Assembly: GCA_024401395.1 (NCBI GenBank)
Contig: JAKSLD010000002.1
Coordinates: forward strand, 29,939 to 93,938
From: Bacteroidales bacterium
GTDB lineage: Bacteria > Bacteroidota > Bacteroidia > Bacteroidales > Marinilabiliaceae
DNA length: 64,000 nucleotides
Direction of reading: 5' to 3'
Both the position numbers and the translations under genes were made by a program. The notes below the pieces were generated by a model that did no database searches, was not told the DNA's origin, and was given only the letters and a program-made list of their open reading frames with translations. The stretch's first letter is position 1. Each line of letters begins with the position of its first letter. This document shows, in pieces, positions 29,356 to 48,722 of the stretch.

Positions 29356-29474
29356 CTGGAAGTCCCTTGCTAGTATAAGGGAAGTCCCTTGTTCATCGTA
29401 ATTTTTTTATTTTGGAGGCTCGGGCTACACTCGGGCTATACTCGGGGAAGACCCTTGTTCATCGTAAATTTTTT
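29356..29474 (+). repeat. Composite repeat element E1: three GGAAGNCCCTTG-type units around an 11-bp tandem (CTCGGGCTACA / CTCGGGCTATA, about 2.5 copies)
   Basis: Near-identical to the reverse complement of 44337-44465. Unit GGGAAGTCCCTTGTTCATCGTAA(A)TTTTTT at 29379-29408 and 29446-29474. Confidence 0.7.
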
Positions 29475-29651
29475 ATGAAGGCCATGCGGAGAAGAGAGAA
29501 GAAACACAAAATAGTGCGACAAGGAAACAGCAATATCAGGAACGGTGACAAGAAGAGAGCCTATTCAAGTATTTTTTCTGAAAAAAGGAACTTTCGTCTG
29601 ATTTGAAATAGTTAATTTTGACTTGGATATAAAAACTAATGCATAACTAAT

Positions 29652-30545: not shown

Positions 30546-30572
30546 GAAGTCCCTTGTTCATCGTAAATTTTT
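30546..30572 (+). repeat. Solo copy of the 30-bp repeat unit (GAAGTCCCTTGTTCATCGTAAATTTTT)
   Basis: Direct orientation relative to the units at 29379 and 29446. Immediately downstream of lgt. Confidence 0.65.
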
Positions 30573-35837: not shown

Positions 35838-35853
35838 GTATAAGGGAGCGTTA
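35838..35853 (+). repeat. Copy of the dispersed motif (GTATAAGGGAGCGTTA), followed by a short TGCGTATATG tandem
   Basis: Related to 7943-7977, 44507-44545 and 60624-60645. Confidence 0.4.
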
Positions 35854-35960
35854 TGGGTGCGTATATGATGCGTATATGGTGCGTTAAGGTTGCTCGTAAT
35901 TTTTTATTTTATGAAGAGAAAAGAGAGTTATCTTTGCGAGAAGAAATACTCGTTAGAATT

Positions 35961-37136
35961 ATGACATATCAAGATATAAAAGAGTACGCTGAGAGCGTGT
36001 TTGAGTATGTACGTGGAGTGCGCAGGGATTTACACAGGCACCCTGAGTTGGCATTTCATGAAGAGTGGACATCGGGATATGTAGAGAAAGAGCTGCAAAA
36101 GATGGGGATAGCATACGTCAAAGGCTTTGCGGAGTATGGCATCAGAGGAATCATTGAATCGGGGAAAGACGGAGAGACTATAGTATTGAGGGCAGATATG
36201 GATGCGCTGCCGATAGAGGAAGACGAGAGACACGAGATAAAATCGGAAATCAAGGGAGCAATGCACGCTTGCGGTCATGATATGCACACAGCTACCCTAC
36301 TTGGCGTGGCAAAGATACTTATGGAGACAAGAGAGCAATGGCAAGGAAAAGTTGTGCTATTATTCCAGCCTAGCGAAGAAGTGTGGCCTGGGGGAGCGAT
36401 AAGAATGCTGAATGACGGAGTGCTAGATGGGTATACGCCAAAGATTGTGATGGCAAATCATGTGATGCCAGATTTAGAAGTAGGGAAAGTTGGGTTTCAT
36501 GGTGGCACATATATGGCATCGGGAGATGAGATACACATCAGGATAAAAGGGCATGGCGGTCATGGTGGCGTTCCACATCTGCTTACGGACACAGTATTGA
36601 CTGGAGCCCAGATACTTGTGGCATTGCAGGAACTAGTAGCCAGAGAAGTACCTGCGAACATACCTACAGTATTGTCATTCGGCAGATTTGAGGCATTAGG
36701 AGCTACCAATATCATACCAGACGACGTGTATCTTGCAGGAACACTTCGCACTATGTCTGAAGAGTGGAGGGGAAGAATGAAGGCAAGAATAAGAGAAGTC
36801 GTGTCGGCACTGTCCACAGCATTCCGCGTAGAGACAAGCATAGACATAAAAGACGGGTTCCCATCGGTATACAACAATCCAGAATTAACAGAACAAGTAC
36901 GACAAACAGCCATATCAGCTATAGGACAAGAGAATGTTGTCAATATGGAGGTGCGCACAACAGCAGAAGATTTCGGGTATTATACACAGAGATACCCTTC
37001 GGTATATTACAGATTTGGCGTAGGAGAGAGTGGAAATGTGCATACGGCGCAGTTTGACCCAGACGAGGAGTCGCTCAAGACATCAGTAGCTGTGATGGTT
37101 GCCGCAGTAATGGATATGTGCAAAAGCAAGAATTAA
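35961..37136 (+). CDS. M20D-family amidohydrolase (N-acyl-L-amino-acid amidohydrolase / hippurate hydrolase-like)
   Basis: MHACGHD metal-binding motif and M20 dimerisation domain. Start set at the ATG at 35961 (MTYQDIKEYAE…). Confidence 0.75.
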   Translation: MTYQDIKEYAESVFEYVRGVRRDLHRHPELAFHEEWTSGYVEKELQKMGIAYVKGFAEYGIRGIIESGKDGETIVLRADMDALPIEEDERHEIKSEIKGAMHACGHDMHTATLLGVAKILMETREQWQGKVVLLFQPSEEVWPGGAIRMLNDGVLDGYTPKIVMANHVMPDLEVGKVGFHGGTYMASGDEIHIRIKGHGGHGGVPHLLTDTVLTGAQILVALQELVAREVPANIPTVLSFGRFEALGATNIIPDDVYLAGTLRTMSEEWRGRMKARIREVVSALSTAFRVETSIDIKDGFPSVYNNPELTEQVRQTAISAIGQENVVNMEVRTTAEDFGYYTQRYPSVYYRFGVGESGNVHTAQFDPDEESLKTSVAVMVAAVMDMCKSKN

Positions 37137-37684
37137 AGAGACATATACCAGACCACACCTATAGCGACCAAAGCCAAGCTATATGCAATGAGGCCTAAAA
37201 TACTATTAAGGACAATCGTCCTACGAGTCACCAGATGGTCGTAGACAGTCGCTCTGCTATCGAAGTTCAGTATATGATAATGTTCCCTTATCATTGAAGC
37301 AGCCTCTTCATCCTCGTTTTTTATATGAGCCAGAAGAAGATGCTTCTGAACGGCACGTTCCTTACGATCGTGACATATACTGACGACCATTAATATGACA
37401 GCGACAATACCTGTACAGAGAATTCCGGAAGTCACACTCACGAAATAGCCCAGCAGGAAAATAACGGGAACAGCTACGCAACTCAGCATAATAAACTCCC
37501 TGACGGCATCCAAACGCAAATCCAGACTTGCATCCCAATATAAACGACGGTACTCTTCTGGTATTGGAATATTATTCTCACGATTCTTGATATCCATCAA
37601 GAACTCCGTCTGGGATGGCATTTTGTTCTTCTGAGTCCTGCTACTGACGAAGGAAAGCAAGTTGACAGGATGATACTTTCCCAT
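37133..37684 (-). CDS. Hypothetical two-TM membrane protein downstream of an NfeD-like gene
   Basis: No recognisable domain. Two hydrophobic segments. Confidence 0.35.
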   Translation of the reverse strand: MGKYHPVNLLSFVSSRTQKNKMPSQTEFLMDIKNRENNIPIPEEYRRLYWDASLDLRLDAVREFIMLSCVAVPVIFLLGYFVSVTSGILCTGIVAVILMVVSICHDRKERAVQKHLLLAHIKNEDEEAASMIREHYHILNFDSRATVYDHLVTRRTIVLNSILGLIAYSLALVAIGVVWYMSL

Positions 37685-37685
37685 A

Positions 37686-38147
37686 TTAAGCCTTTTCTAC
37701 AAGGATAGTATTATTGTCCAACGAGACAACCTTAACTTCCGTACCTTGGTCTATGAAAGCTGTAGCCTTTACCTCCAGATAGCCATATTTATCGAACTTA
37801 GCCTTTCCGAAAAGGTTAAGACGAGTTGCTGCTATACCTGTATCGCCTACGGCTATGGTAGTTGGCTGTTCATTTACCTGAGAATCTATCTTAGAATCAA
37901 GACTTAGCTTTTTACGTATAGCTGAATTCCACAACAATGCACACAGGAGAATGAGAACAAGTACTACTCCTGCCACTACACAGAGAGCGACGGCTGTTCC
38001 ATATTCTTGATTAGCCAGATATGCAGCTCCAATTACAGATGCAGTTCCCACAATTCCTGCGATACCGATACCAGGAATCAATAATATTTCTGCGAGGAGA
38101 CAAAACAGACCTATTATGGACAATAAAACAATTAAAGCGGTTGTCAT
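37686..38147 (-). CDS. NfeD-like membrane protein (short form with C-terminal OB fold)
   Basis: TM helices plus a C-terminal beta-rich OB-like region (IAVGDTGIAATRLNLFGKAKFDKYGYLEVKATAFIDQGTEVKVV). Confidence 0.55.
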   Translation of the reverse strand: MTTALIVLLSIIGLFCLLAEILLIPGIGIAGIVGTASVIGAAYLANQEYGTAVALCVVAGVVLVLILLCALLWNSAIRKKLSLDSKIDSQVNEQPTTIAVGDTGIAATRLNLFGKAKFDKYGYLEVKATAFIDQGTEVKVVSLDNNTILVEKA

Positions 38148-38195
38148 TTTTCTAGTTGTTATTAATGCTATTGCAAAGGTAATAATATTATTTAC

Positions 38196-38504
38196 TCATA
38201 CAAGAACTATCTCAGAAATAAAGACAACCACACAACATATCACAGCAACCTGGAATAGATTTGCGCCCTTCCAGGCTGAGAACATACCGATGATGAACGC
38301 CAACAACCCCGCTATGGGAGACTGTGTGGCTTCGACTATAGCCGGGAACGTCATCACAGATAAAGTCACGTATGGGACATAATATAGGAATGAAGTAATG
38401 AATTCATTCTTTATCTGTTTTCGCAGCAAAGTCATAGGTATCACCCTTATTAGGTATGTGACCCCTATCATTATTGCCATATATATGTATACGTTATGTG
38501 TCAT
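38196..38504 (-). CDS. azlD: Branched-chain amino acid exporter small subunit AzlD
   Basis: ~100-aa protein with three TM helices immediately after azlC. Confidence 0.7.
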   Translation of the reverse strand: MTHNVYIYMAIMIGVTYLIRVIPMTLLRKQIKNEFITSFLYYVPYVTLSVMTFPAIVEATQSPIAGLLAFIIGMFSAWKGANLFQVAVICCVVVFISEIVLV

Positions 38505-39223
38505 ACCTCTTCCTCCTCTGTAGTTTTATGTGGAAACAATAGAGCTGCGACAGATGAAATGATGACCGTCAGAATAATGATGCGCGTTCCTCCCGACAAA
38601 TCTGAGACATATGGGAGATAATTAGCAGCCAGACTCATCGCGAAACTGATAGACACGAGCCAGAACAACACCTTGTTCTCCTTTGCCGGTGGAATAATAA
38701 TTGCGATGAACATACCATATAGAGCTACACTCAGGGCACTTACGATATTCTTTGGCAATATATCTCCTGCTATACACCCGAATGCGGTTCCGCTAGCCCA
38801 GAAAATGGCAGGCAATATAGCAGCGCCGTAAGAGTACCAAGGATTTAAGGATCCCTTTCTGGCTATGGCTATAGCAAACAGTTCATCCGTCAGGTCCAAA
38901 GCCATTACAAATCTATGGATTACAGGGGTCTTGGCTGAGATACGCTGACTCCAGGCGGCACTCATCAGCAGGTAACGAGCATTGGCGATAAATGTCATCA
39001 ACGCCACCTCGGTATATGTCGCCTGAGCCGCTATAAGAGAAAACCCGATATATTCACCTGCAGAAGCCATACAGAAGAAACTTGTCCAGAAACCCTGACC
39101 TGCTGTCAGTCCTGCATTGACTGCTATGATACCTAAAGAAAAGGATACGGCGAGGTAGCCCAAAGCTATCGGGATTGAATCTCGCATTCCTTCGCGAAAG
39201 GCTGTTTTATTGGTCTGTAGCAT
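38501..39223 (-). CDS. azlC: Branched-chain amino acid exporter AzlC
   Basis: AzlC family polytopic membrane protein (…DSIPIALGYLAVSFSLGI…). Confidence 0.8.
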   Translation of the reverse strand: MLQTNKTAFREGMRDSIPIALGYLAVSFSLGIIAVNAGLTAGQGFWTSFFCMASAGEYIGFSLIAAQATYTEVALMTFIANARYLLMSAAWSQRISAKTPVIHRFVMALDLTDELFAIAIARKGSLNPWYSYGAAILPAIFWASGTAFGCIAGDILPKNIVSALSVALYGMFIAIIIPPAKENKVLFWLVSISFAMSLAANYLPYVSDLSGGTRIIILTVIISSVAALLFPHKTTEEEEV

Positions 39224-39442: not shown

Positions 39443-39512
39443 TATATTTGCTTACACATTAAAACATTTTATCTTTGTTAACTTGCAGATTAAAAGCAAA
39501 TAAGTACCTTTG
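39443..39512 (+). promoter_or_regulatory. Three Bacteroides-type -7 promoter motifs (TATATTTG, TATCTTTG, TACCTTTG) in the leader of the ATP-grasp cluster. A 10-bp-stem hairpin lies upstream at 39345-39390
   Basis: Matches to the TAnnTTTG consensus of the Bacteroides primary sigma factor at 39443, 39470 and 39505. Confidence 0.4.
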
Positions 39513-39532: not shown

Positions 39533-40879
39533 GTGTCGGATTTAATTAGAATTGTGTGTATGTATAGTCTACTATTAAAACAAACAGATGCAGTGAATAG
39601 ATGGATGGAGCGATATGGTGTTCGCTTCGGCATCTATAAGAACGGAGAGTTCAAGGAACAATTGTTCCCCTTTGACGCTATTCCACGTATTATCAGTCAC
39701 GAAGACTGGAAGATGCTGGAGGTCGGACTCATCCAGCGAGTTGATGCGCTTAACGCTTTCCTGAGAGACATATATACAGAGAAGCGTATTGTAAAAGACG
39801 GTATCGTTCCAGAGGATTTCATCTACTCTTCCAAGGGGTATCTCCCTCAGTGTGAGGGTTTCATCCCTCCAAAGGGCATTTACTCTCATATATCGGGCAT
39901 CGATTTGGTTCAGGCAGAGGATGGCACATGGTATATCCTGGAGGATAACCTCAGAATACCATCTGGCGCATCATACCCAATGATTGCCAGAGACCTGACA
40001 CGTAAGGTTTCTCCTGAGACTTTTACTGATTCGTCTCTCATAGACAACCGTAATTATGCTCAGCTCCTCAGGGATTCAATGGATTATGTGAATGTCGACA
40101 ATGGTCTGGAGGTTATCCTTACCCCAGGCAGATACAATTCCGCATATTTCGAGCATTCTTATTTGGCTGAGAAGGCTCGCGTGGTATTGGCCTACCCAGA
40201 TGACCTTTTCGTGGATAATGGATATGTCTACTACAGGGGACTGAATAACAAGAGCGAACGAGTGGGTGTCATATATCGCCGTATTTCGGATGAATATCTA
40301 GACCCTATGACATTCGAGCCAACGTCGCTGCTTGGCGTGCCTAATCTGTTCGAAGCCTACCGTCAAGGAAATGTAGCAATATTCAACGCCTTTGGAAATG
40401 GTGTTGCCGATGACAAGGGTATATACTATTTCGTCCCAAAGATGATTAAGTATTATCTCAATGAGGAGCCTATACTGAAGAATGCACCTACATATCTCCC
40501 TATATATGAGGAGGATCGCAAATATGTATTGGACAACCTGGAAAAACTGGTCCTCAAGGATGTTTCTGAAGCTGGAGGATATGGCGTAATGTTCGGCCGC
40601 GATATGTCGCCTGAGAAACTGGCTGAGATGAAGCACCTCATCAAGACTGAATCTCGCCGCTGGATTGCTCAGGAGATTATCAATTTCATCGACTTGGATA
40701 TCATCGACAATGGCGAGAAGGTGAAGAGGAAAGCCGACCTCAGAGCGTTTGTTCTCTCGGGGGAGACAACAAGGGTTTGGGCAAGTGGTCTCACTCGTTT
40801 CACACGCAACGAAAAATCTTTCATCGTCAACTCTTCTCAGGGTGGCGGTTTCAAAGATACTTGGGTTCTTGATAAATAA
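39533..40879 (+). CDS. Circularly permuted ATP-grasp type 2 protein (predicted amidoligase)
   Basis: Conserved blocks NG..Y.…P.D.IPRIIS..EW..LE.GL.QR…LN.FL.D.Y and WYILEDN.R.PSG.SY match, by eye, the CP-ATP-grasp family (homologs of mycobacterial Rv2411c). The track start at 39533 is a GTG; the first ATGs are at 39560 and 39605. Confidence 0.75.
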   Translation: MSDLIRIVCMYSLLLKQTDAVNRWMERYGVRFGIYKNGEFKEQLFPFDAIPRIISHEDWKMLEVGLIQRVDALNAFLRDIYTEKRIVKDGIVPEDFIYSSKGYLPQCEGFIPPKGIYSHISGIDLVQAEDGTWYILEDNLRIPSGASYPMIARDLTRKVSPETFTDSSLIDNRNYAQLLRDSMDYVNVDNGLEVILTPGRYNSAYFEHSYLAEKARVVLAYPDDLFVDNGYVYYRGLNNKSERVGVIYRRISDEYLDPMTFEPTSLLGVPNLFEAYRQGNVAIFNAFGNGVADDKGIYYFVPKMIKYYLNEEPILKNAPTYLPIYEEDRKYVLDNLEKLVLKDVSEAGGYGVMFGRDMSPEKLAEMKHLIKTESRRWIAQEIINFIDLDIIDNGEKVKRKADLRAFVLSGETTRVWASGLTRFTRNEKSFIVNSSQGGGFKDTWVLDK

Positions 40880-40905
40880 GAAATAACGCATAACAATATA
40901 ATATT

Positions 40906-41583
40906 ATGACTTACAATATTGCAATATCTCCAGCTAAGGCTAGCCGCCTCTATTGGTTGGGCCGTTACTCAGAACGTGTTTGTTCTACCCTCCATATGCT
41001 CCATAAGTGCTATGACGAGGTCGTAGATAATGAGCATACAGACGTACATTCTGATTTCTGCGTACGTATGGGTATCCCTTTTGAATATGACAACGCAAGA
41101 CAGTTCTTGAAGAATTACCTCTACAACAAAGAGAAGACATACTCTGTCATCAATATGCTCGAGCGTGTTAAGGATAATGCAATTCTCTTGAGAGAGGAAC
41201 TTAAAAGTGAATCCCTCGCTTACGTCGAAATGGCTATCAACTATATGAACCAGGCTTCTATGGATGAAAGCCGCCTCTATGACTTGCAGCCTGTAACAGA
41301 CTACTTGTTCGCTTTCTTCGGTGCTATCGAGGAGCGTATTTTCAATATGGATGCACTCAACCTTATCTTGATTGGCAAATATGTCGAGAAATCGGAATTA
41401 TATATCCGATTCGACTATGACCTCGCGCGTATCGATGAGTCTCTATGCCGACTCGAGCATTTTGTCAATGTGGAAGTCGGTTTGTGCGACGACCGCAAGA
41501 TGTCTGCAGTAAGGAATGGCATTAATGAGATGCCTATGTCTGCATCTATCATCGACAACCTCAACACAATATTTGCGGCCTGA
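40906..41583 (+). CDS. Alpha-E domain protein (DUF403), the usual partner of CP-ATP-grasp
   Basis: All-alpha protein beginning …ASRLYWLGRYSER, which is the N-terminal signature of alpha-E domains. Confidence 0.7.
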   Translation: MTYNIAISPAKASRLYWLGRYSERVCSTLHMLHKCYDEVVDNEHTDVHSDFCVRMGIPFEYDNARQFLKNYLYNKEKTYSVINMLERVKDNAILLREELKSESLAYVEMAINYMNQASMDESRLYDLQPVTDYLFAFFGAIEERIFNMDALNLILIGKYVEKSELYIRFDYDLARIDESLCRLEHFVNVEVGLCDDRKMSAVRNGINEMPMSASIIDNLNTIFAA

Positions 41584-41586
41584 TAT

Positions 41587-42390
41587 ATGGTACTCAAGTA
41601 TAGCCATATTACTGTGATCACGTTTTCTTCGCTCATCCATGCTCACAGTTTCAGTATGCGTTGCTCTCCTTTTCAGAACAGCAACCAGCGTATCATCGAG
41701 GAGAATGTCTCGGCTATCCCTCATTGTAATATAGCTAGGAATACTGATTCTATGGGCAACACAGTCGATTATGGGTATATTGAGGACTATCACGATTCTT
41801 TCGCTTTTGAAAGTCGTGGCATCATCTCTATCAGTTCGCACATATCTAAGGAAAGCAACAACCCCCTATTCTTCTATGCGACGCCCCTCACCAGCCCTTC
41901 TTCGGATCTAATATATCTTGCTCATCTGTTAGACGCTAGGGCTGGTGAGGAGGTTTTCATTCGCCAGGCATCGGATCTCATCCATAAGCATGTCCAGTAT
42001 GTTTCTGGAAGCACGGATGTCTGCACTTCCGCAGAAGCTGCTTTCGCACAGGGCAAAGGGGTTTGCCAGGATTTTGCTCATATAGCTATATGCCTATGCC
42101 GCCTGTGTGGCATTTCTGCTAGATATGTCAATGGATATATGCTTGGCGAGGGTCAGACTCACGCTTGGGTGGAGTATTTCATTCCGTCTATCTCTGAATG
42201 GCATGCCTACGACCCGACTAACAACAGGGTGGTAGATGACTCTTATATCAAACTGGCCCAGGGCAGAGATTATAATGATTGTCGCACTAATCACGGGGTT
42301 TTCAGAGGCGATGTCAGTCAGACTATGCATGTCAGGCTCTCTGTGCAAGAGGTCCTGAATGGTAATTATTTATATAGCAATGTAATATGA
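41587..42390 (+). CDS. Transglutaminase-like cysteine protease superfamily protein with a Bact_transglu_N-like N-terminus
   Basis: Cys-His-Asp catalytic signature: GKGVCQDFAHI (Cys), THAWVEYF (His), WHAYDPTN (Asp). Confidence 0.8.
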   Translation: MVLKYSHITVITFSSLIHAHSFSMRCSPFQNSNQRIIEENVSAIPHCNIARNTDSMGNTVDYGYIEDYHDSFAFESRGIISISSHISKESNNPLFFYATPLTSPSSDLIYLAHLLDARAGEEVFIRQASDLIHKHVQYVSGSTDVCTSAEAAFAQGKGVCQDFAHIAICLCRLCGISARYVNGYMLGEGQTHAWVEYFIPSISEWHAYDPTNNRVVDDSYIKLAQGRDYNDCRTNHGVFRGDVSQTMHVRLSVQEVLNGNYLYSNVI

Positions 42391-43310
42391 TACAAACCGT
42401 AATATCAGAGAATCTCCCAGTAGATGAGCGTCTTATCATCAAAAAGAACTCTATAGGCAATAAGGATGGTAAGCGTGTGTGTATCGTCACAGGTATTCAC
42501 GGAGATGAACTCGAAGGTCAGTACGTCTGTTATGAACTGATGAGACGTCTGAAGAAGGAGAGCCACCAGCTCAAGGGGCGCGTTGAGATATACCCTGCCT
42601 TGAATCCTCTTGGCGTGGACTCTGTCACAAGGGCTATTCCTACTTTCGACCTGGATATGAACCGAATCTTCCCTGGTAATCCTGATGGACATATGATTGA
42701 GTATGTGGCTCATAGAATTATCGAGGACCTTGCCGGAGCCGATCTTGTCATTGATATCCATTCTTCTAATGTCTATTTGTACGAGATTCCTCAGGCTCGC
42801 ATCAGTAAGACTTTCTCTGACAAACTGATGCCTATAGCGGAAATGCTTAACCTCGATTTTATCTGGGTACACGATGCTGCAACGGTACTGGAATCTACCA
42901 TCGCCCATTCTCTCAATTCTATCGGAACCCCGACAGTGGTAGTCGAGATGGGTATCGGTATGAAGATTACTAAGGAGTATGGCGACCGTCTGGTGGATGG
43001 CATCATAAATATGCTCGATAAGTTCGGTATGTGGGGTGGCAATCTCCCGGTACGTATCAAGCAGCCTATCATATCCACAGTTGGCGATGTCTGTTTTATC
43101 AATGCTAACTACTCTGGCGTAATCATTAACCCTATGCCGCACTCTTCTCGCGTATGCAAGGGGGATGTCCTATGCCAGATCGTAAGTTCTCTCACTGGCG
43201 AAGTGCTCGAAAACGTGGAAGCTCCTGTCGATGGCTTGCTTTTTACTATGCGAAGCTATCCTATAGTCTATGAAGGGTCTCTGCTCGCCCGAATTTTCTA
43301 CAAACAATAA
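42387..43310 (+). CDS. AstE/AspA (succinylglutamate desuccinylase / aspartoacylase, M14-like) zinc hydrolase
   Basis: Zinc-ligand motifs are intact: VTGIHGDELEG (HxxE), NRIFPG, VIDIHSS (His), VVEMG (catalytic Glu). ATGA overlap with the transglutaminase gene. Confidence 0.8.
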   Translation: MIQTVISENLPVDERLIIKKNSIGNKDGKRVCIVTGIHGDELEGQYVCYELMRRLKKESHQLKGRVEIYPALNPLGVDSVTRAIPTFDLDMNRIFPGNPDGHMIEYVAHRIIEDLAGADLVIDIHSSNVYLYEIPQARISKTFSDKLMPIAEMLNLDFIWVHDAATVLESTIAHSLNSIGTPTVVVEMGIGMKITKEYGDRLVDGIINMLDKFGMWGGNLPVRIKQPIISTVGDVCFINANYSGVIINPMPHSSRVCKGDVLCQIVSSLTGEVLENVEAPVDGLLFTMRSYPIVYEGSLLARIFYKQ

Positions 43311-43324
43311 GTGCGACTAAGGAA

Positions 43325-44257
43325 ATGAAACAATGTGATATTTTTACAATGAAATCACCTTTTAGAGATGACTATCGCATACCTGGGTTCTATTTCGGCA
43401 ATGGAGACAAGACGGTAGCTATCATCGGCGCTATGCGAGGCAACGAGGTGCAGCAACTTTTCGTCTGCTCTCAGTTGGTCAAGAACCTCCTTGCTCTTGA
43501 GGGTGAAGGCAAGATTAATCCAAACGTAGGCATCCTTGTCATTCCTACCGTCAATCCTTATTCTCTGAATATCCATAAGCGCTTTTGGGCTATGGATAAC
43601 ACAGATATCAACCGTATGTTCCCTGGATATGACCAGGGCGAAACAACTCAGAGAATAGCTGCCGCTCTTTTCGAGACCGTGAGGGGCTACGAATATGGTA
43701 TCCAGCTCTCTAGCTATTACCTCAATGGTAATTTCGTGCCTCACGTCAGGGTGATGGATACTGGCTACCAGGACCTGGAGAGTGCTAAGAGCTTCGGATT
43801 GCCTTTTATATATGAGTACGAACCGAAACCTTATGACACAACTCTGCTCAACTATAACTGGCAGATTTTCGATACTAAGGCGTTTAGCATATACAGCGGC
43901 TCTACTGATGTCATCAATAAGGACCTCGCAAAACAAACGTGGCTCAGCATATTGCGTTTCCTTCACGCTAAGGGTATAATCGATAAGCCTATGCACGGCG
44001 GTATGGTGCCTTTCAAATTCAGAAACGAGATGTTGAGCACTGTCGTCTCTCGCCAATCTGGTATCTTGTACCCTAAATGCGATGTCGCTCAGAATGTCAA
44101 GAAGGGCGACTTGCTGGCCGAGGTTTTGTCTCCTTATATGGGCGAGACAATAGATTCTATCTACTCGCCTGTCACAGGTACGGTATTCTTCGCCCACCAT
44201 ACCCCACTTATCCATCAACATTCAAGAATTTTCCAAATCGTAGAATATCCGGAATAA
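43325..44257 (+). CDS. Second AstE/AspA-family paralog with degenerate metal-binding residues (likely non-catalytic)
   Basis: Same fold and spacing (IIGAMRGNEVQQ, NRMFPG). HGDE is replaced by RGNE, and the DIHSS position reads QLSSY, so both His zinc ligands are absent. Confidence 0.7.
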   Translation: MKQCDIFTMKSPFRDDYRIPGFYFGNGDKTVAIIGAMRGNEVQQLFVCSQLVKNLLALEGEGKINPNVGILVIPTVNPYSLNIHKRFWAMDNTDINRMFPGYDQGETTQRIAAALFETVRGYEYGIQLSSYYLNGNFVPHVRVMDTGYQDLESAKSFGLPFIYEYEPKPYDTTLLNYNWQIFDTKAFSIYSGSTDVINKDLAKQTWLSILRFLHAKGIIDKPMHGGMVPFKFRNEMLSTVVSRQSGILYPKCDVAQNVKKGDLLAEVLSPYMGETIDSIYSPVTGTVFFAHHTPLIHQHSRIFQIVEYPE

Positions 44258-44336
44258 TACACCCAGGCACTGAATATAATACTAGATGAGAAGGCTGTGC
44301 CGCGTGAGTGGTCCAGCCTTATTTTTTGCTGGTTTA

Positions 44337-44465
44337 TCAAAAAATTACGATGAACAAGGGTCTTCCCCGAGTGTAGACCGAGTATAGACCGAGTGTAGAC
44401 CGAGTCCCCAAAATAAAAAAATTACGATGAACAAGGTACTTCCCTATGACTAGAAAGGGTCTAGT
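44337..44465 (-). repeat. Composite repeat element E2, an inverted copy of E1 with three copies of the 11-bp tandem GAGTGTAGACC / GAGTATAGACC
   Basis: The reverse complement aligns along its full length with 29356-29474. The only length difference is the 11-bp tandem copy number (3 versus about 2). Confidence 0.7.
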
Positions 44466-45846: not shown

Positions 45847-46839
45847 ATGGATACAGTAGATATTAAAGAATTGAACGAAAGAATCAAGCAGGAGTCGGCT
45901 TTCGTCGATCTCATCTCGCTTGAAATGAATAAAGTCATCGTAGGTCAGAAACACCTCGTTGAATCCCTCATGATCGGCCTCTTGTCTGATGGCCACATCC
46001 TCTTGGAGGGTGTACCTGGCTTGGCTAAGACTCTTGCCATTAACACCTTGGCTAAGGTAATCGATGCTGGCTTCGCTCGCATTCAGTTTACTCCTGACCT
46101 CCTCCCTGCCGATATCCTCGGTACTCTCATCTATTCCCAAAAGACTGAGGAGTTCCAGGTAAAGAAGGGTCCTATCTTCTCTAACTTCATCCTCGCAGAT
46201 GAGATCAACCGTGCCCCTGCTAAAGTGCAGTCGGCGCTCTTGGAGGCTATGCAGGAACGTCAGGTTACTATCGGCGACGAGACCTACCCAATGGAGAAGC
46301 CTTTCCTCGTTATGGCTACTCAGAACCCTATCGAGCAGGAAGGTACATACCCTCTCCCTGAAGCTCAGGTCGACCGTTTCATGCTAAAGGTCGTAATCGA
46401 CTACCCTAAGAAGGAGGAGGAACGCCTCATCGTTCGCCAGAACCTCCAGAAATCGTTCCCTCAGCCACAGGCTATTCTCAAGCCAGAGGATATCATCCGT
46501 GCCCGTCAGGTGGTGAATGATGTCTATATGGACGAGAAGATTGAGAAATATATCGTAGATATCGTATTCGCTACTCGTTACCCAGAGCAGTATAAACTCG
46601 AGCGCTTCCAGCAGATGATCCAGTGCGGAGCTTCTCCTCGTGCCTCTATCTCATTGGCACGCGCTGCTAAGGCCTACGCTTTCATCAAGAGAAGAGGCTA
46701 CGTAATCCCAGAGGATATCCGCGCAGTATGCCACGACGTTCTCCGCCACCGTATCGCCCTCACTTACGAGGCTGAGGCTAGCAACGTGACAACTGAGGAA
46801 ATCATCTCTGAGATTCTTAACCAGGTTGAGGTACCTTAA
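45847..46839 (+). CDS. MoxR-family AAA+ ATPase (first gene of the Bat aerotolerance operon)
   Basis: Walker A GVPGLAKT, Walker B ILADEINRA. MoxR length and context. Confidence 0.9.
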   Translation: MDTVDIKELNERIKQESAFVDLISLEMNKVIVGQKHLVESLMIGLLSDGHILLEGVPGLAKTLAINTLAKVIDAGFARIQFTPDLLPADILGTLIYSQKTEEFQVKKGPIFSNFILADEINRAPAKVQSALLEAMQERQVTIGDETYPMEKPFLVMATQNPIEQEGTYPLPEAQVDRFMLKVVIDYPKKEEERLIVRQNLQKSFPQPQAILKPEDIIRARQVVNDVYMDEKIEKYIVDIVFATRYPEQYKLERFQQMIQCGASPRASISLARAAKAYAFIKRRGYVIPEDIRAVCHDVLRHRIALTYEAEASNVTTEEIISEILNQVEVP

Positions 46840-46853
46840 TAGACGGTATAATA

Positions 46854-47753
46854 GTGGATACAGCTGAACTCATACAGAAGGTCCGCCAAATTGAAATTAA
46901 AACCCGCGGCCTGTCCAACCATATCTTTGCTGGCGAGTATCACTCGGCATTCAAGGGGCGTGGTATGGCTTTCGCCGAGGTGCGCGACTACCAGTTTGGC
47001 GACGACGTTCGTAACATAGACTGGAATGTGACCGCCCGCATGGGTAAGCCTTTCATCAAGGTCTTTGAGGAGGAACGCGAGAATACCGTTCTCTTGCTCA
47101 TTGATGTCTCTGGCTCCCGCGAGTTCGGCACAGCAACCCGCTTCAAGAAGAACCTGATTACTGAGCTTGCCGCTACTTTGGCATTCTCTACTATTCAGAA
47201 TAATGATAAGATTGGTGTCATCTTCTTTTCCGACAAGGTGGAACAGTTCATTCCTCCTCAAAAGGGAAAGAAACATGTGCTCCATATAATCCGCGAGTTG
47301 CTGACATTCGAACCTACAGGACGTAAGACCGACCTCAGCGAGGCTCTTCGCTACCTCACAGGAGCTATCAAGAAACGTTCTACCGCTTTCTTGATATCGG
47401 ACTTTATCCAGGAATCTAACGCCGAGACTCCTAAGGGGGATAGCACTCCTTTTGAGCGTTCACTCCGAATCGCTTCCCATAAGCACGACGTAGTGGCTCT
47501 GCGTATACTGGACAAGCGTGAGGCCGAATTGCCTGACGTGGGTCTTATGCTCATGGCTGATGCAGAAACGGGCGAACAGCGTTGGGTGGACTCTTCTTCC
47601 GCAGCAGTGCGTAACGCATGGCACAATTCGTGGGTGGAACGCAACAACGCTCTCCAGCAGTCTTTCACAAGATGTGGCGTGGATACGGTGGATATCGCTA
47701 CCGATCACGACTATGTCATCGACTTGCTGAAACTCTTCAAACAAAGAAGCTAA
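46854..47753 (+). CDS. DUF58 protein (vWA-like, MoxR partner)
   Basis: DUF58 signature (…YQFGDDVRNIDWNVTAR…) directly downstream of MoxR. Confidence 0.85.
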   Translation: MDTAELIQKVRQIEIKTRGLSNHIFAGEYHSAFKGRGMAFAEVRDYQFGDDVRNIDWNVTARMGKPFIKVFEEERENTVLLLIDVSGSREFGTATRFKKNLITELAATLAFSTIQNNDKIGVIFFSDKVEQFIPPQKGKKHVLHIIRELLTFEPTGRKTDLSEALRYLTGAIKKRSTAFLISDFIQESNAETPKGDSTPFERSLRIASHKHDVVALRILDKREAELPDVGLMLMADAETGEQRWVDSSSAAVRNAWHNSWVERNNALQQSFTRCGVDTVDIATDHDYVIDLLKLFKQRS

Positions 47754-48722
47754 ATGAAGTACCTATACCTTATACTATTACTCTTCTGCACCGGTGTTTC
47801 AAATGTCTTGACATCGGCTCAGAACGTACGTACCCACGCCGAAATGGATTCTACCATCATATTCATAGGCGGTCAGGTGGGCTTGGATGTAGTAGCAATA
47901 TTTCCTAAGGATGCCGACTTCCACTTTCTCCCTTTAGAGGGCGACTCGCTGTCGAAGGAGGTGGAGATAGTGGAACGTTTCATGCCTGATTCTACTGTCG
48001 AGGCTGATATGTTGTTGATTCATCAGCGCTATATCATACAGTCGTTCGATAGTGGCTTGCACTATATCCCGCTAAAACCATTGGTGAAATTGCCCGACAA
48101 TACTACGGTGGATGTGGAGATCCCTGCTCTCAATGTCCTCAATCCTTTTAATATCGAGATCGACGAGCAGTCGCAGATAGCTAAGATTACCGACATCCGA
48201 AACGCTATGGATGCCCCTTGGACTTTTAACGAGTTGCTGGAGTTGTGGCCTTGGTTCCTCGGTGCATTGGTAATTGTGGCTCTTGCCGTATTGGGTTACT
48301 GGTACTACAAAAAGAATAAACTCAAGGTATCTGGTGTTCCAGAGAAGCCTAAGAAGGTGGAACCTTGTCACGTAACTGCCCTCGACAATCTTGAAGCTCT
48401 CAAGACTAAGGAGCTGTGGCAGCATTCTCACGTGAAGGAGTATTACTCTGAGCTGACTGAGATTCTGCGTATTTATATAAGCGAGAGATATAGCATCAAT
48501 GCTATGGAGAGTACGACTGACGAGATTATGACCGACCTTAAGTCGATTCCTAATATCGATATGTCTGATACTACCCGTATGCAGAATATCCTGGAACTTG
48601 CGGATTTCGCTAAGTTCGCTAAGATGGAGCCTCTGCCTGATGAAAACGACGGCGCTATGAAACAAGCTGTGGAGTTTGTCAATAACACTGCCGAAACAAA
48701 TACGGAGGCTCAAACAAAATAA
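47754..48722 (+). CDS. Bat-operon hypothetical membrane protein (between DUF58 and BatA)
   Basis: Signal peptide plus one internal TM. Occupies the conserved hypothetical slot of the Bacteroides Bat operon. Confidence 0.55.
   Translation: MKYLYLILLLFCTGVSNVLTSAQNVRTHAEMDSTIIFIGGQVGLDVVAIFPKDADFHFLPLEGDSLSKEVEIVERFMPDSTVEADMLLIHQRYIIQSFDSGLHYIPLKPLVKLPDNTTVDVEIPALNVLNPFNIEIDEQSQIAKITDIRNAMDAPWTFNELLELWPWFLGALVIVALAVLGYWYYKKNKLKVSGVPEKPKKVEPCHVTALDNLEALKTKELWQHSHVKEYYSELTEILRIYISERYSINAMESTTDEIMTDLKSIPNIDMSDTTRMQNILELADFAKFAKMEPLPDENDGAMKQAVEFVNNTAETNTEAQTK

Follow-up and report, generated by a model that had tools for sequence, protein, structure and literature searches.

A gene triad encoding a circularly permuted ATP-grasp protein, an alpha-E protein and a transglutaminase-like cysteine peptidase was described by Valas & Bourne (2008), as the "Anbu operon", and by Iyer, Abhiman, Burroughs & Aravind (2009), and has been an orphan system since then. 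It was predicted to be a peptide-ligase or tagging system in which peptidases reverse the ligation. The usual fourth gene, frequent but not obligatory, encodes Anbu, a proteasome beta-like N-terminal nucleophile (Ntn) hydrolase. Here we analyze a five-gene operon in which the triad is followed by two genes of the AstE/AspA family. It occupies positions 39533-44257 of a 64,000-nucleotide stretch of DNA (hereafter the window; contig JAKSLD010000002.1, positions 29,939 to 93,938 of the forward strand, assembly GCA_024401395.1) from a Bacteroidales bacterium of the family Marinilabiliaceae. The five genes recur in the same order in several phyla as a self-contained cassette, in which a predicted zinc deacylase with a complete catalytic set is paired with a paralogue that has exchanged two zinc ligands and the catalytic glutamate.

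The triad is widespread, and in Proteobacteria it is induced when nitrogen is limiting. In Pseudomonas putida the triad operon ranks with the most strongly induced genes under nitrogen limitation, in Burkholderia cenocepacia it is NtrC/sigma-54 dependent and part of the nitrogen-limitation regulon, and in marine metagenomes the triad domains co-vary with urea-metabolism domains. Papers of 2017-2018 still gave it no demonstrated function. The ATP-grasp homologue of Yersinia releases phosphate from ATP, a reaction that Glu or Gln does not stimulate; Anbu was found to have no peptidase activity, and no interaction was detected among Anbu-operon proteins. Zhang & Aravind likewise treat the triad as peptide tagging with a peptidase reversing ligase-added tags, and draw a parallel to the pairing of TTLL glutamylases with CCP deglutamylases. 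These papers agree with a first reading of the present locus, made from its letters alone (hereafter the sequence-only reading), which had described the triad as a predicted system known from comparative genomics. A further system, similar in its logic, is cyanophycin metabolism, in which the AstE-family iso-dipeptidase CphZ (8EIN) hydrolyses beta-Asp-Arg dipeptides derived from cyanophycin; the CphZ gene adjoins those of the synthetase and cyanophycinase, and is also found in bacteria lacking both.

Conservation of the five-gene cassette

The operon consists of five plus-strand open reading frames (ORFs; 39533-40879, 40906-41583, 41587-42390, 42387-43310 and 43325-44257) separated by gaps of 26, 3, -4 and 14 bp. 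The coordinates and all four gaps given in the sequence-only reading were reproduced, and a Pfam search (CP_ATPgrasp_2, Alpha-E, Transglut_core, Bact_transglu_N and AstE_AspA_cat) bore out each of its five domain calls. We use the working names ATPg (ATP-grasp), alpha-E, peptidase (transglutaminase-like), AstA (first AstE/AspA protein) and AstB (second) for the products. The features of the locus are as follows.

39443-39512, plus strand: putative promoter region with three Bacteroidota-type -7 motifs TAnnTTTG at 39443, 39470 and 39505
39561-40879, plus strand: ATPg, circularly permuted ATP-grasp amidoligase by its CP_ATPgrasp_2 match (mechanical ORF from GTG 39533)
40906-41583, plus strand: alpha-E, short form of 225 amino acids, with Alpha-E Pfam match and WLGRY-ER motif
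41587-42390, plus strand: transglutaminase-like (papain-fold) cysteine peptidase with a Bact_transglu_N domain, by Pfam and similarity to 3ISR
42387-43310, plus strand: AstA, AstE/AspA-family zinc deacylase by its complete catalytic set, overlapping the peptidase stop by 4 bp at its start
43325-44257, plus strand: AstB, conserved pseudo-deacylase paralogue of AstA with two zinc ligands and the catalytic Glu replaced
44291-44327, plus strand: intrinsic-terminator-like hairpin and U-run, 34 nt past the AstB stop

The true start of ATPg is probably ATG 39561 (439 amino acids) rather than GTG 39533, because in conspecific contigs the gene callers settled on 439 residues, and the start of homologues lies at the equivalent position.

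One genome per GTDB species was scanned for pattern-matched stretches encoding AstB relatives; at least 591 such stretches were confirmed, and the best 80 of them were analyzed as loci. The order ATPg, alpha-E, peptidase, AstA, AstB was found in 70 of the 80. Among the remaining loci, five were cut by contig ends, four lacked the triad and one, from Planctomycetota (L035), was rearranged with all five genes still clustered. The 70 cassettes come from Bacteroidota, Bacillota, Desulfovibrionaceae, Verrucomicrobiota and Planctomycetota. Carriers belong mainly to Bacteroidota and Bacillota, many of them from gut or rumen samples; by record title they comprise, among others, many Bacteroidales lineages, Lachnospiraceae, Ruminococcus (including R. 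flavefaciens FD-1), Oscillospiraceae, Desulfovibrionaceae, Opitutales and Planctomycetota. Median intergenic gaps across loci are 24, 14, 18 and 4 bp, and AstA and AstB are adjacent and paired in all 69 loci in which both are full length. When flanking ORFs were clustered, the five cassette families appeared in 70-77 loci and the next family in 11/80, so that no sixth conserved gene (target, transporter or regulator) was found among the 80 loci within about 10 kb. Outside close relatives, the 600 bp on either side likewise held no small ORF or precursor peptide that is conserved, and no riboswitch or T-box was found upstream of 11 Bacillota loci at Rfam gathering scores. The arrangement is not due to chance, because the same five-gene order recurs in 70/80 loci from several phyla; the five genes are a self-contained cassette, conserved as a unit. 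The sequence-only reading had left this to a survey of Bacteroidota, and the order holds beyond that phylum as well.

Metagenome contigs add Fibrobacterota to the carriers, with a complete cassette that contains two inserted genes. In this Fibrobacterales locus (L090, 7694-9999) a DUF2442 gene separates peptidase from AstA and a YhcG/DUF1016 nuclease-like gene separates AstA from AstB, with the five genes of the cassette all intact. A Treponema locus (L088, 8012-10930) has its peptidase gene split into two ORFs and lacks ATPg and alpha-E, with AstA and AstB intact; it looks like a decaying cassette that retains the hydrolase pair.

We considered rampant recent horizontal transfer, which is not supported overall, as sequence similarity runs mostly along phyla: joined end to end, ATPg, AstA and AstB share identities of 0.65 within Bacteroidota and within Bacillota, and 0.57 between the two. 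The Verrucomicrobiota and Planctomycetota copies and one metagenome-assembled genome labelled Enterobacterales are nearest to Bacteroidota, and a few transfers between phyla are likely on these sequence relationships. On plasmids (PLSDB) only distant AstB/AstE relatives of 24-26% identity were found. Three loci labelled Oscillospiraceae, Wujia chipingensis and Anaerovoracaceae (L053, L063 and L069) are 97-100% identical in their concatenated ATPg, AstA and AstB. Their isolate names all end in "cleanbin", and the near-identity indicates either very recent transfer or a binning or labelling error.

Our literature search, in which Iyer et al. (2009) was not covered, found no paper pairing an ATP-grasp protein with a succinylglutamate desuccinylase-type protein, and none after 2018 that mentions Anbu together with ATP-grasp. 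The five-gene cassette looks like an undescribed variant of the triad, an earlier mention in Iyer et al. (2009) being possible. No NCBIfam equivalog model assigns a function to any of the five proteins, and none of them matched in PADLOC beyond a noise hit of 0.002. Together with the conservation of the cassette as a unit, this supports its earlier description as an amidoligase-deacylase system of unknown product.

Catalytic residues and the AstB pseudoenzyme

Both AstE/AspA proteins are recognized by Pfam (AstE_AspA_cat, 6e-26 for AstA and 7.6e-12 for AstB) and are 23% identical to each other. Their active sites were compared in an alignment of 69 AstA/AstB pairs from other genomes. In AstA the zinc ligands H38, E41 and H125, the catalytic base E187 and the carboxylate-binding residues R82, N92 and R93 are each kept in 99-100% of the 69 homologues. 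AstA therefore has everything that marks AstE/AspA zinc deacylases (HxxE...H ligands, a catalytic Glu, and a carboxylate-binding Arg and Asn-Arg), and the intact ligands noticed earlier extend to a full catalytic set. In AstB, by comparison, the position of H38 is taken by R38 in 100% of members, that of H125 (129 in AstB) by A, S or T and that of E187 by Y190 in 99%; E41 and the carboxylate-binding R86, N96 and R97 are kept. The resulting signature is R38-E41-R86-N96-R97-(A/S/T/P)129-Y190 in AstB versus H-E-R-N-R-H-E in AstA. The sequence-only reading was right that AstB has lost both His ligands and incomplete in that the catalytic Glu has been replaced as well. Judged by these residues, AstB belongs to the AstE/AspA fold family and not to the zinc-deacylase enzyme class.

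AstB is not decaying. The idea that it is more conserved than AstA was rejected (median pairwise identity across phyla 0.52 vs 0.56), and by the same measure it is nearly as constrained. This view is based on its cross-phylum identity, its long invariant motifs (KRFWxMDNTDINRMFPGY..GETTQR and LNYNWQ), its full-length fold and its compact clade. The AlphaFold2 model, with a predicted local distance difference test score (pLDDT) of 86.9, has a full-length two-domain fold with a C-terminal cap, and its template modelling (TM) scores are 0.74-0.77 to 3cdx, DoeB 6twm and 2qj8 and 0.71-0.77 to CphZ. When 1.84 billion representative proteins were scanned, those with the R-E...Y signature formed a compact clade, more distant relatives reverting to H-E-H. 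The most conserved stretch of AstB, residues 81-110 (window 43565-43654, KRFWAMDNTDINRMFPGYD.GETTQR), is modelled with a pLDDT of 45-63 compared with about 90 elsewhere, which suggests that this loop may become ordered only upon binding of a ligand or partner.

Among solved proteins AstA matches 3cdx, 3na6 and DoeB 6twm (E 1e-13 to 1e-16) in an alignment that runs to residue 293, the C-terminal domain being retained. Its match to CphZ is weak and confined to the N-terminus (E 3.6e-06, 29.9 bits). AstA falls under every NCBIfam equivalog cut-off, scoring 79.5 bits against 402.7 for DoeB, 20.9 against 180 for the aspartoacylase model and 21.3 against 305.65 for the AstE model.

The AstA-AstB pair also occurs away from the ligase genes. 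In one locus of the genome scan (L076) it directly follows an ABC uptake system, and in another (L067) the genes close by encode a TRAP transporter, an M81 (MlrC-like) peptidase and an AraC regulator. We scanned metagenomes with the L076 protein as seed, a sample deliberately biased to its Lachnospiraceae-related clade. Of the 80 loci obtained, 42 carried the pair alone, in at least 7 different contexts, and 17 the complete cassette. The pair is separable from the ligase genes and, being common without them in this sample, the hydrolase module has value without an adjacent ligase. Fourteen further loci of this sample, in two contexts, carried AstB alone with the pseudoenzyme signature intact; they include L143, L144, L147-L153, L156, L163 and L165, where the surrounding 10 kb or so holds no AstA. 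AstB may do more than act as a partner of AstA. That a dead subunit persists alone was unexpected.

The first three genes carry what defines the triad: a circularly permuted ATP-grasp protein, an adjacent alpha-E protein with the ER motif and an adjacent Cys-His-Asp peptidase. A conserved Anbu gene was not found within about 10 kb, and AstA and AstB stand in fourth and fifth place instead; the search did not extend to the rest of the genome. ATPg, the peptidase and AstA all have their catalytic residues intact. ATPg matches CP_ATPgrasp_2 (2.6e-137, profile positions 1-373 of 374) and CP_ATPgrasp_1 (9.4e-127), and aligns with PDB 3N6X from Methylobacillus over residues 24-446 (E 3e-113). Of the five proteins it is the best conserved: its median pairwise identity across phyla is 66-67%, and 168 of its positions are conserved at a level of at least 97%. 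The peptidase matches Transglut_core (1.1e-17) and Bact_transglu_N (2.1e-08). Its Cys, His and Asp motifs align with those of the putative cysteine protease 3ISR (E 2.9e-17), and the catalytic residues predicted earlier were located as C160, H192 and D209, kept in at least 97% of 71 homologues.

Alpha-E (7.5e-17) covers profile positions 6-163 of 294 alone, the N-terminal half, and the full-length homologues found have a uniform short form of 220-233 amino acids with the invariant motif WLGRY-ER (W17-L18-G19-R20-Y21, E23, R24). Its AlphaFold2 model is an all-helical bundle of ten helices (pLDDT 91.3). No solved relative was found for it, and a structure search with the model gave generic helical-bundle matches only, with no informative neighbour. 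On the model, alpha-E is best read as a non-catalytic helical partner.

Flanking signals and neighbouring genes

The three -7 motifs that the sequence-only reading had placed in front of the operon were located there. TAnnTTTG has 3 matches inside these 63 bp, compared with 30 in 64 kb of the same strand (0.47 per kb). The hairpin at the other end had been called weak, which it is not: with 12 pairs and a U-run after it, it folds at -19.7 kcal/mol (z = -3.35; 0/200 shuffles fold as well), is identical across conspecific contigs and looks like a good intrinsic terminator. An Rfam scan of the window at E <= 1 found no riboswitch or T-box upstream of the operon, and the operon region had no Rfam match.

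The "E2 repeat" reported behind the operon is present, as one copy of a strain-variable element. It is a 77-bp insertion at 44339-44415, just 3' of the operon terminator, bounded by a repeated 21-mer (AAAAAATTACGATGAACAAGG) and holding three 11-bp tandem units (GAGTGTAGACC-like). Two otherwise near-identical conspecific contigs (L001 and L004) lack it, and related copies lie about 15 kb upstream on the opposite strand, at 29378-29476 (inverted) and 30546-30572. The insertion is a strain-variable dispersed intergenic repeat.

Upstream, at 35853-39223, are genes for an M20 peptidase/amidohydrolase, an NfeD-like membrane protein and the branched-chain amino-acid exporter proteins AzlD and AzlC, which diverge from the cassette and are conserved in conspecific contigs only. 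About 1.6 kb downstream, at 45847-48722, lies what looks like a Bat/aerotolerance-type operon, with genes for a MoxR AAA+ ATPase (AAA_3), a DUF58/vWA protein and a DUF4381 protein. Zhang & Aravind discuss MoxR-vWA systems as the other setting in which bacteria have transglutaminase-like peptidases, and this neighbourhood is not kept beside the cassette in other loci.

Candidate chemistry and comparison with named systems

We tentatively favour, at somewhat less than an even chance, the reading that the operon is self-contained and serves first to form and later to break a non-ribosomal amide (peptide or isopeptide) bond, as a variant of the triad without Anbu. Going by its family, ATPg would spend ATP on activating a carboxylate, which it would join to an amine, with alpha-E as non-catalytic partner. 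The substrates would be ubiquitous cell constituents, most likely amino acids, since no accessory or biosynthetic gene travels with the cassette. The Cys-His-Asp peptidase would then cleave or transfer the resulting linkage, and AstA, whose catalytic residues are in place, would hydrolyse the small end product, an N-acyl amino acid or iso-dipeptide whose alpha-carboxylate is free, to free amino acids. AstB might sit beside AstA as a non-catalytic subunit with its carboxylate-binding pocket retained, and the sequence-only reading, which had proposed a binding partner, gains support from the pairing of the two in every locus with both full length. The AstA/AstB pair would thereby fill the position and role of proteobacterial Anbu. 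A free small molecule or oligomer, handled by a synthetase, a depolymerase and a dipeptidase as in cyanophycin metabolism, seems preferable to a protein tag as the substrate, because family members of known function act on small N-acyl amino acids or dipeptides, the C-terminal cap is retained and detached pairs lie beside transporters. The gamma-glutamylated substrate suggested earlier found no support.

In the tagging account, which is the original Iyer/Aravind prediction and the main rival, ATPg and alpha-E would add amino-acid tails to a carboxylate of a housekeeping protein, and the peptidase and AstA/AstB would remove and degrade the tag. This is how papers describe the triad, with the peptidase reversing tags. 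An invariant protein target would agree with how strongly ATPg is conserved, and no dedicated biosynthetic genes lie beside the cassette. M14-type enzymes, moreover, remove glutamate tails in eukaryotes. We nevertheless consider tagging rather unlikely: no conserved target or small ORF adjoins the cassette, no interaction among Anbu-operon proteins was detected, the characterised AstE/AspA members all have small molecules as substrates and the C-terminal cap is still present here, and detached AstA-AstB pairs beside solute transporters are hard to square with an intracellular protein tag. Those same pairs, persisting without a ligase near uptake systems, would suit purely catabolic scavenging, in which an exogenous or recycled amide is degraded for nitrogen or amino acids and the ATP-grasp protein activates or re-ligates. 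Nitrogen limitation induces related operons, which also co-vary with urea-utilisation genes; hydrolase-type proteins are the products of three of the five genes, and many carriers are gut and rumen bacteria. However, the ATP-grasp enzymes in this superfamily are ligases, the full cassette has no transporter or regulator conserved alongside it and no riboswitch or T-box pointing to a nutrient was found, and we regard scavenging as unlikely.

That the triad and the AstA-AstB pair are two unrelated modules and mere neighbours is a very improbable account, even if the pair is often alone, in at least 7 contexts, and AstB is sometimes alone. The five-gene order with short or overlapping junctions is found across phyla in 70/80 loci whose flanking genes differ everywhere, and the clustering survives rearrangement in Planctomycetota and insertions in Fibrobacterales. 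An anti-phage defence or toxin system is the least credible of all. The cassette is patchy and self-contained with variable flanks, and DUF2442 and YhcG-like genes are inserted in the Fibrobacterales copy; on the other hand, the enzyme families are metabolic, PADLOC gave nothing beyond noise, the plasmid-borne relatives of AstB are only distant (24-26% identity) and sequence relationships mostly follow phyla.

Several points weigh against the make-and-break amide system. Members of the triad are without a known substrate or product, and the sole biochemical result, ATP hydrolysis by the Yersinia protein, came with no stimulation by Glu or Gln. The nitrogen link comes from Proteobacteria and not from this cassette. 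On the scores given above AstA is not an orthologue of CphZ, DoeB, AstE or ASPA, and may have a specificity of its own. The AstA-AstB heteromer is proposed from obligate adjacency only, and the 14 metagenome loci with a lone AstB fit poorly with AstB as a mere partner. Co-transcription of a ligase with the hydrolases of its product looks futile unless regulated. There is precedent for pairing a ligase with a hydrolase in glutathionylspermidine synthetase/amidase (GspSA), and for clusters of such genes in cyanophycin metabolism.

A bolder proposal, which we hold to be improbable, is that the cassette makes a widespread amino-acid conjugate or oligomer that serves anaerobic communities as a shared nitrogen or amino-acid resource, which lineages with AstA-AstB or AstB only would scavenge. 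AstB would then be not a dead subunit but a neofunctionalised metal-independent enzyme or ligand sensor, and its invariant polar pocket (R38, E41, R86, N96-R97, E106-T-T-Q-R110, N176-Y-N-W-Q180 and Y190) might recognise the compound.

In the cassette, Anbu is exchanged for well-understood chemistry, the hydrolysis of small N-acyl amino acids or iso-dipeptides with a free alpha-carboxylate. The range of possible products is therefore narrowed, which offers a tractable handle on the triad. If the product is indeed an amino-acid conjugate, solving it would also show what chemistry the Anbu operon performs. Hundreds of species-level genomes hold the cassette, many of them from gut and rumen. Some carriers, such as Ruminococcus flavefaciens FD-1 and Prevotella sp. 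P5-92, appear from their record titles to be cultured, so experiments are feasible. The pair of an active and a dead paralogue also provides a clean case for studying pseudoenzyme function.

Compared with named systems, the operon follows the logic of CphA/CphB/CphZ, with an ATP-dependent amino-acid ligase, an endopeptidase and an AstE/AspA hydrolase encoded together, and CphZ occurs without the synthetase in some bacteria, as do detached AstA-AstB pairs. In contrast, ATPg and the peptidase are not homologous to CphA and CphB, and CphZ is a homodimer without a dead paralogue. Pfam domains of a CphA-type synthetase or an S51 cyanophycinase were not found in the five proteins or the flanking genes. 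The likeness is one of how the systems would work, not of membership. The closest solved relatives of AstA and AstB are the N-acetyl-2,4-diaminobutyrate deacetylase DoeB/EutE and the uncharacterised COG3608 proteins 3cdx, 3na6 and 2qj8, which share the two-domain fold and the zinc site, AstB being without two of the zinc ligands. AstA differs from DoeB in its score, far under the cut-off, and in having no ectoine genes nearby.

In GspSA, an ATP-grasp-type amide ligase is joined to a papain-like thiol amidase that acts on the same bond. The logic of ligase plus thiol amidase is shared, and 3N6X was deposited as a "putative glutathionylspermidine synthase"; here, however, the two are separate proteins, accompanied by alpha-E and AstA/AstB, and a Pfam search at E <= 0.01 matched neither the GspS synthetase nor the CHAP amidase families. 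The TTLL/CCP (M14) enzymes of eukaryotic tubulin similarly pair an ATP-grasp ligase, as writer, with a carboxypeptidase-fold metallo-hydrolase, as eraser. They belong to different subfamilies, no protein substrate is identified here, and AstE/AspA enzymes, by their family, would have a capped active site suited to small substrates. The triad of Iyer et al. (2009) has the same first three genes in the same order and, like the cassette, a function that is predicted only. The differences are that AstA and the pseudoenzyme AstB take the 3' position of Anbu, that alpha-E has a uniform short form of about 225 amino acids compared with a Pfam model of 294 positions, and that the cassette is carried mainly by Bacteroidota and Bacillota, the triad by Proteobacteria and cyanobacteria.

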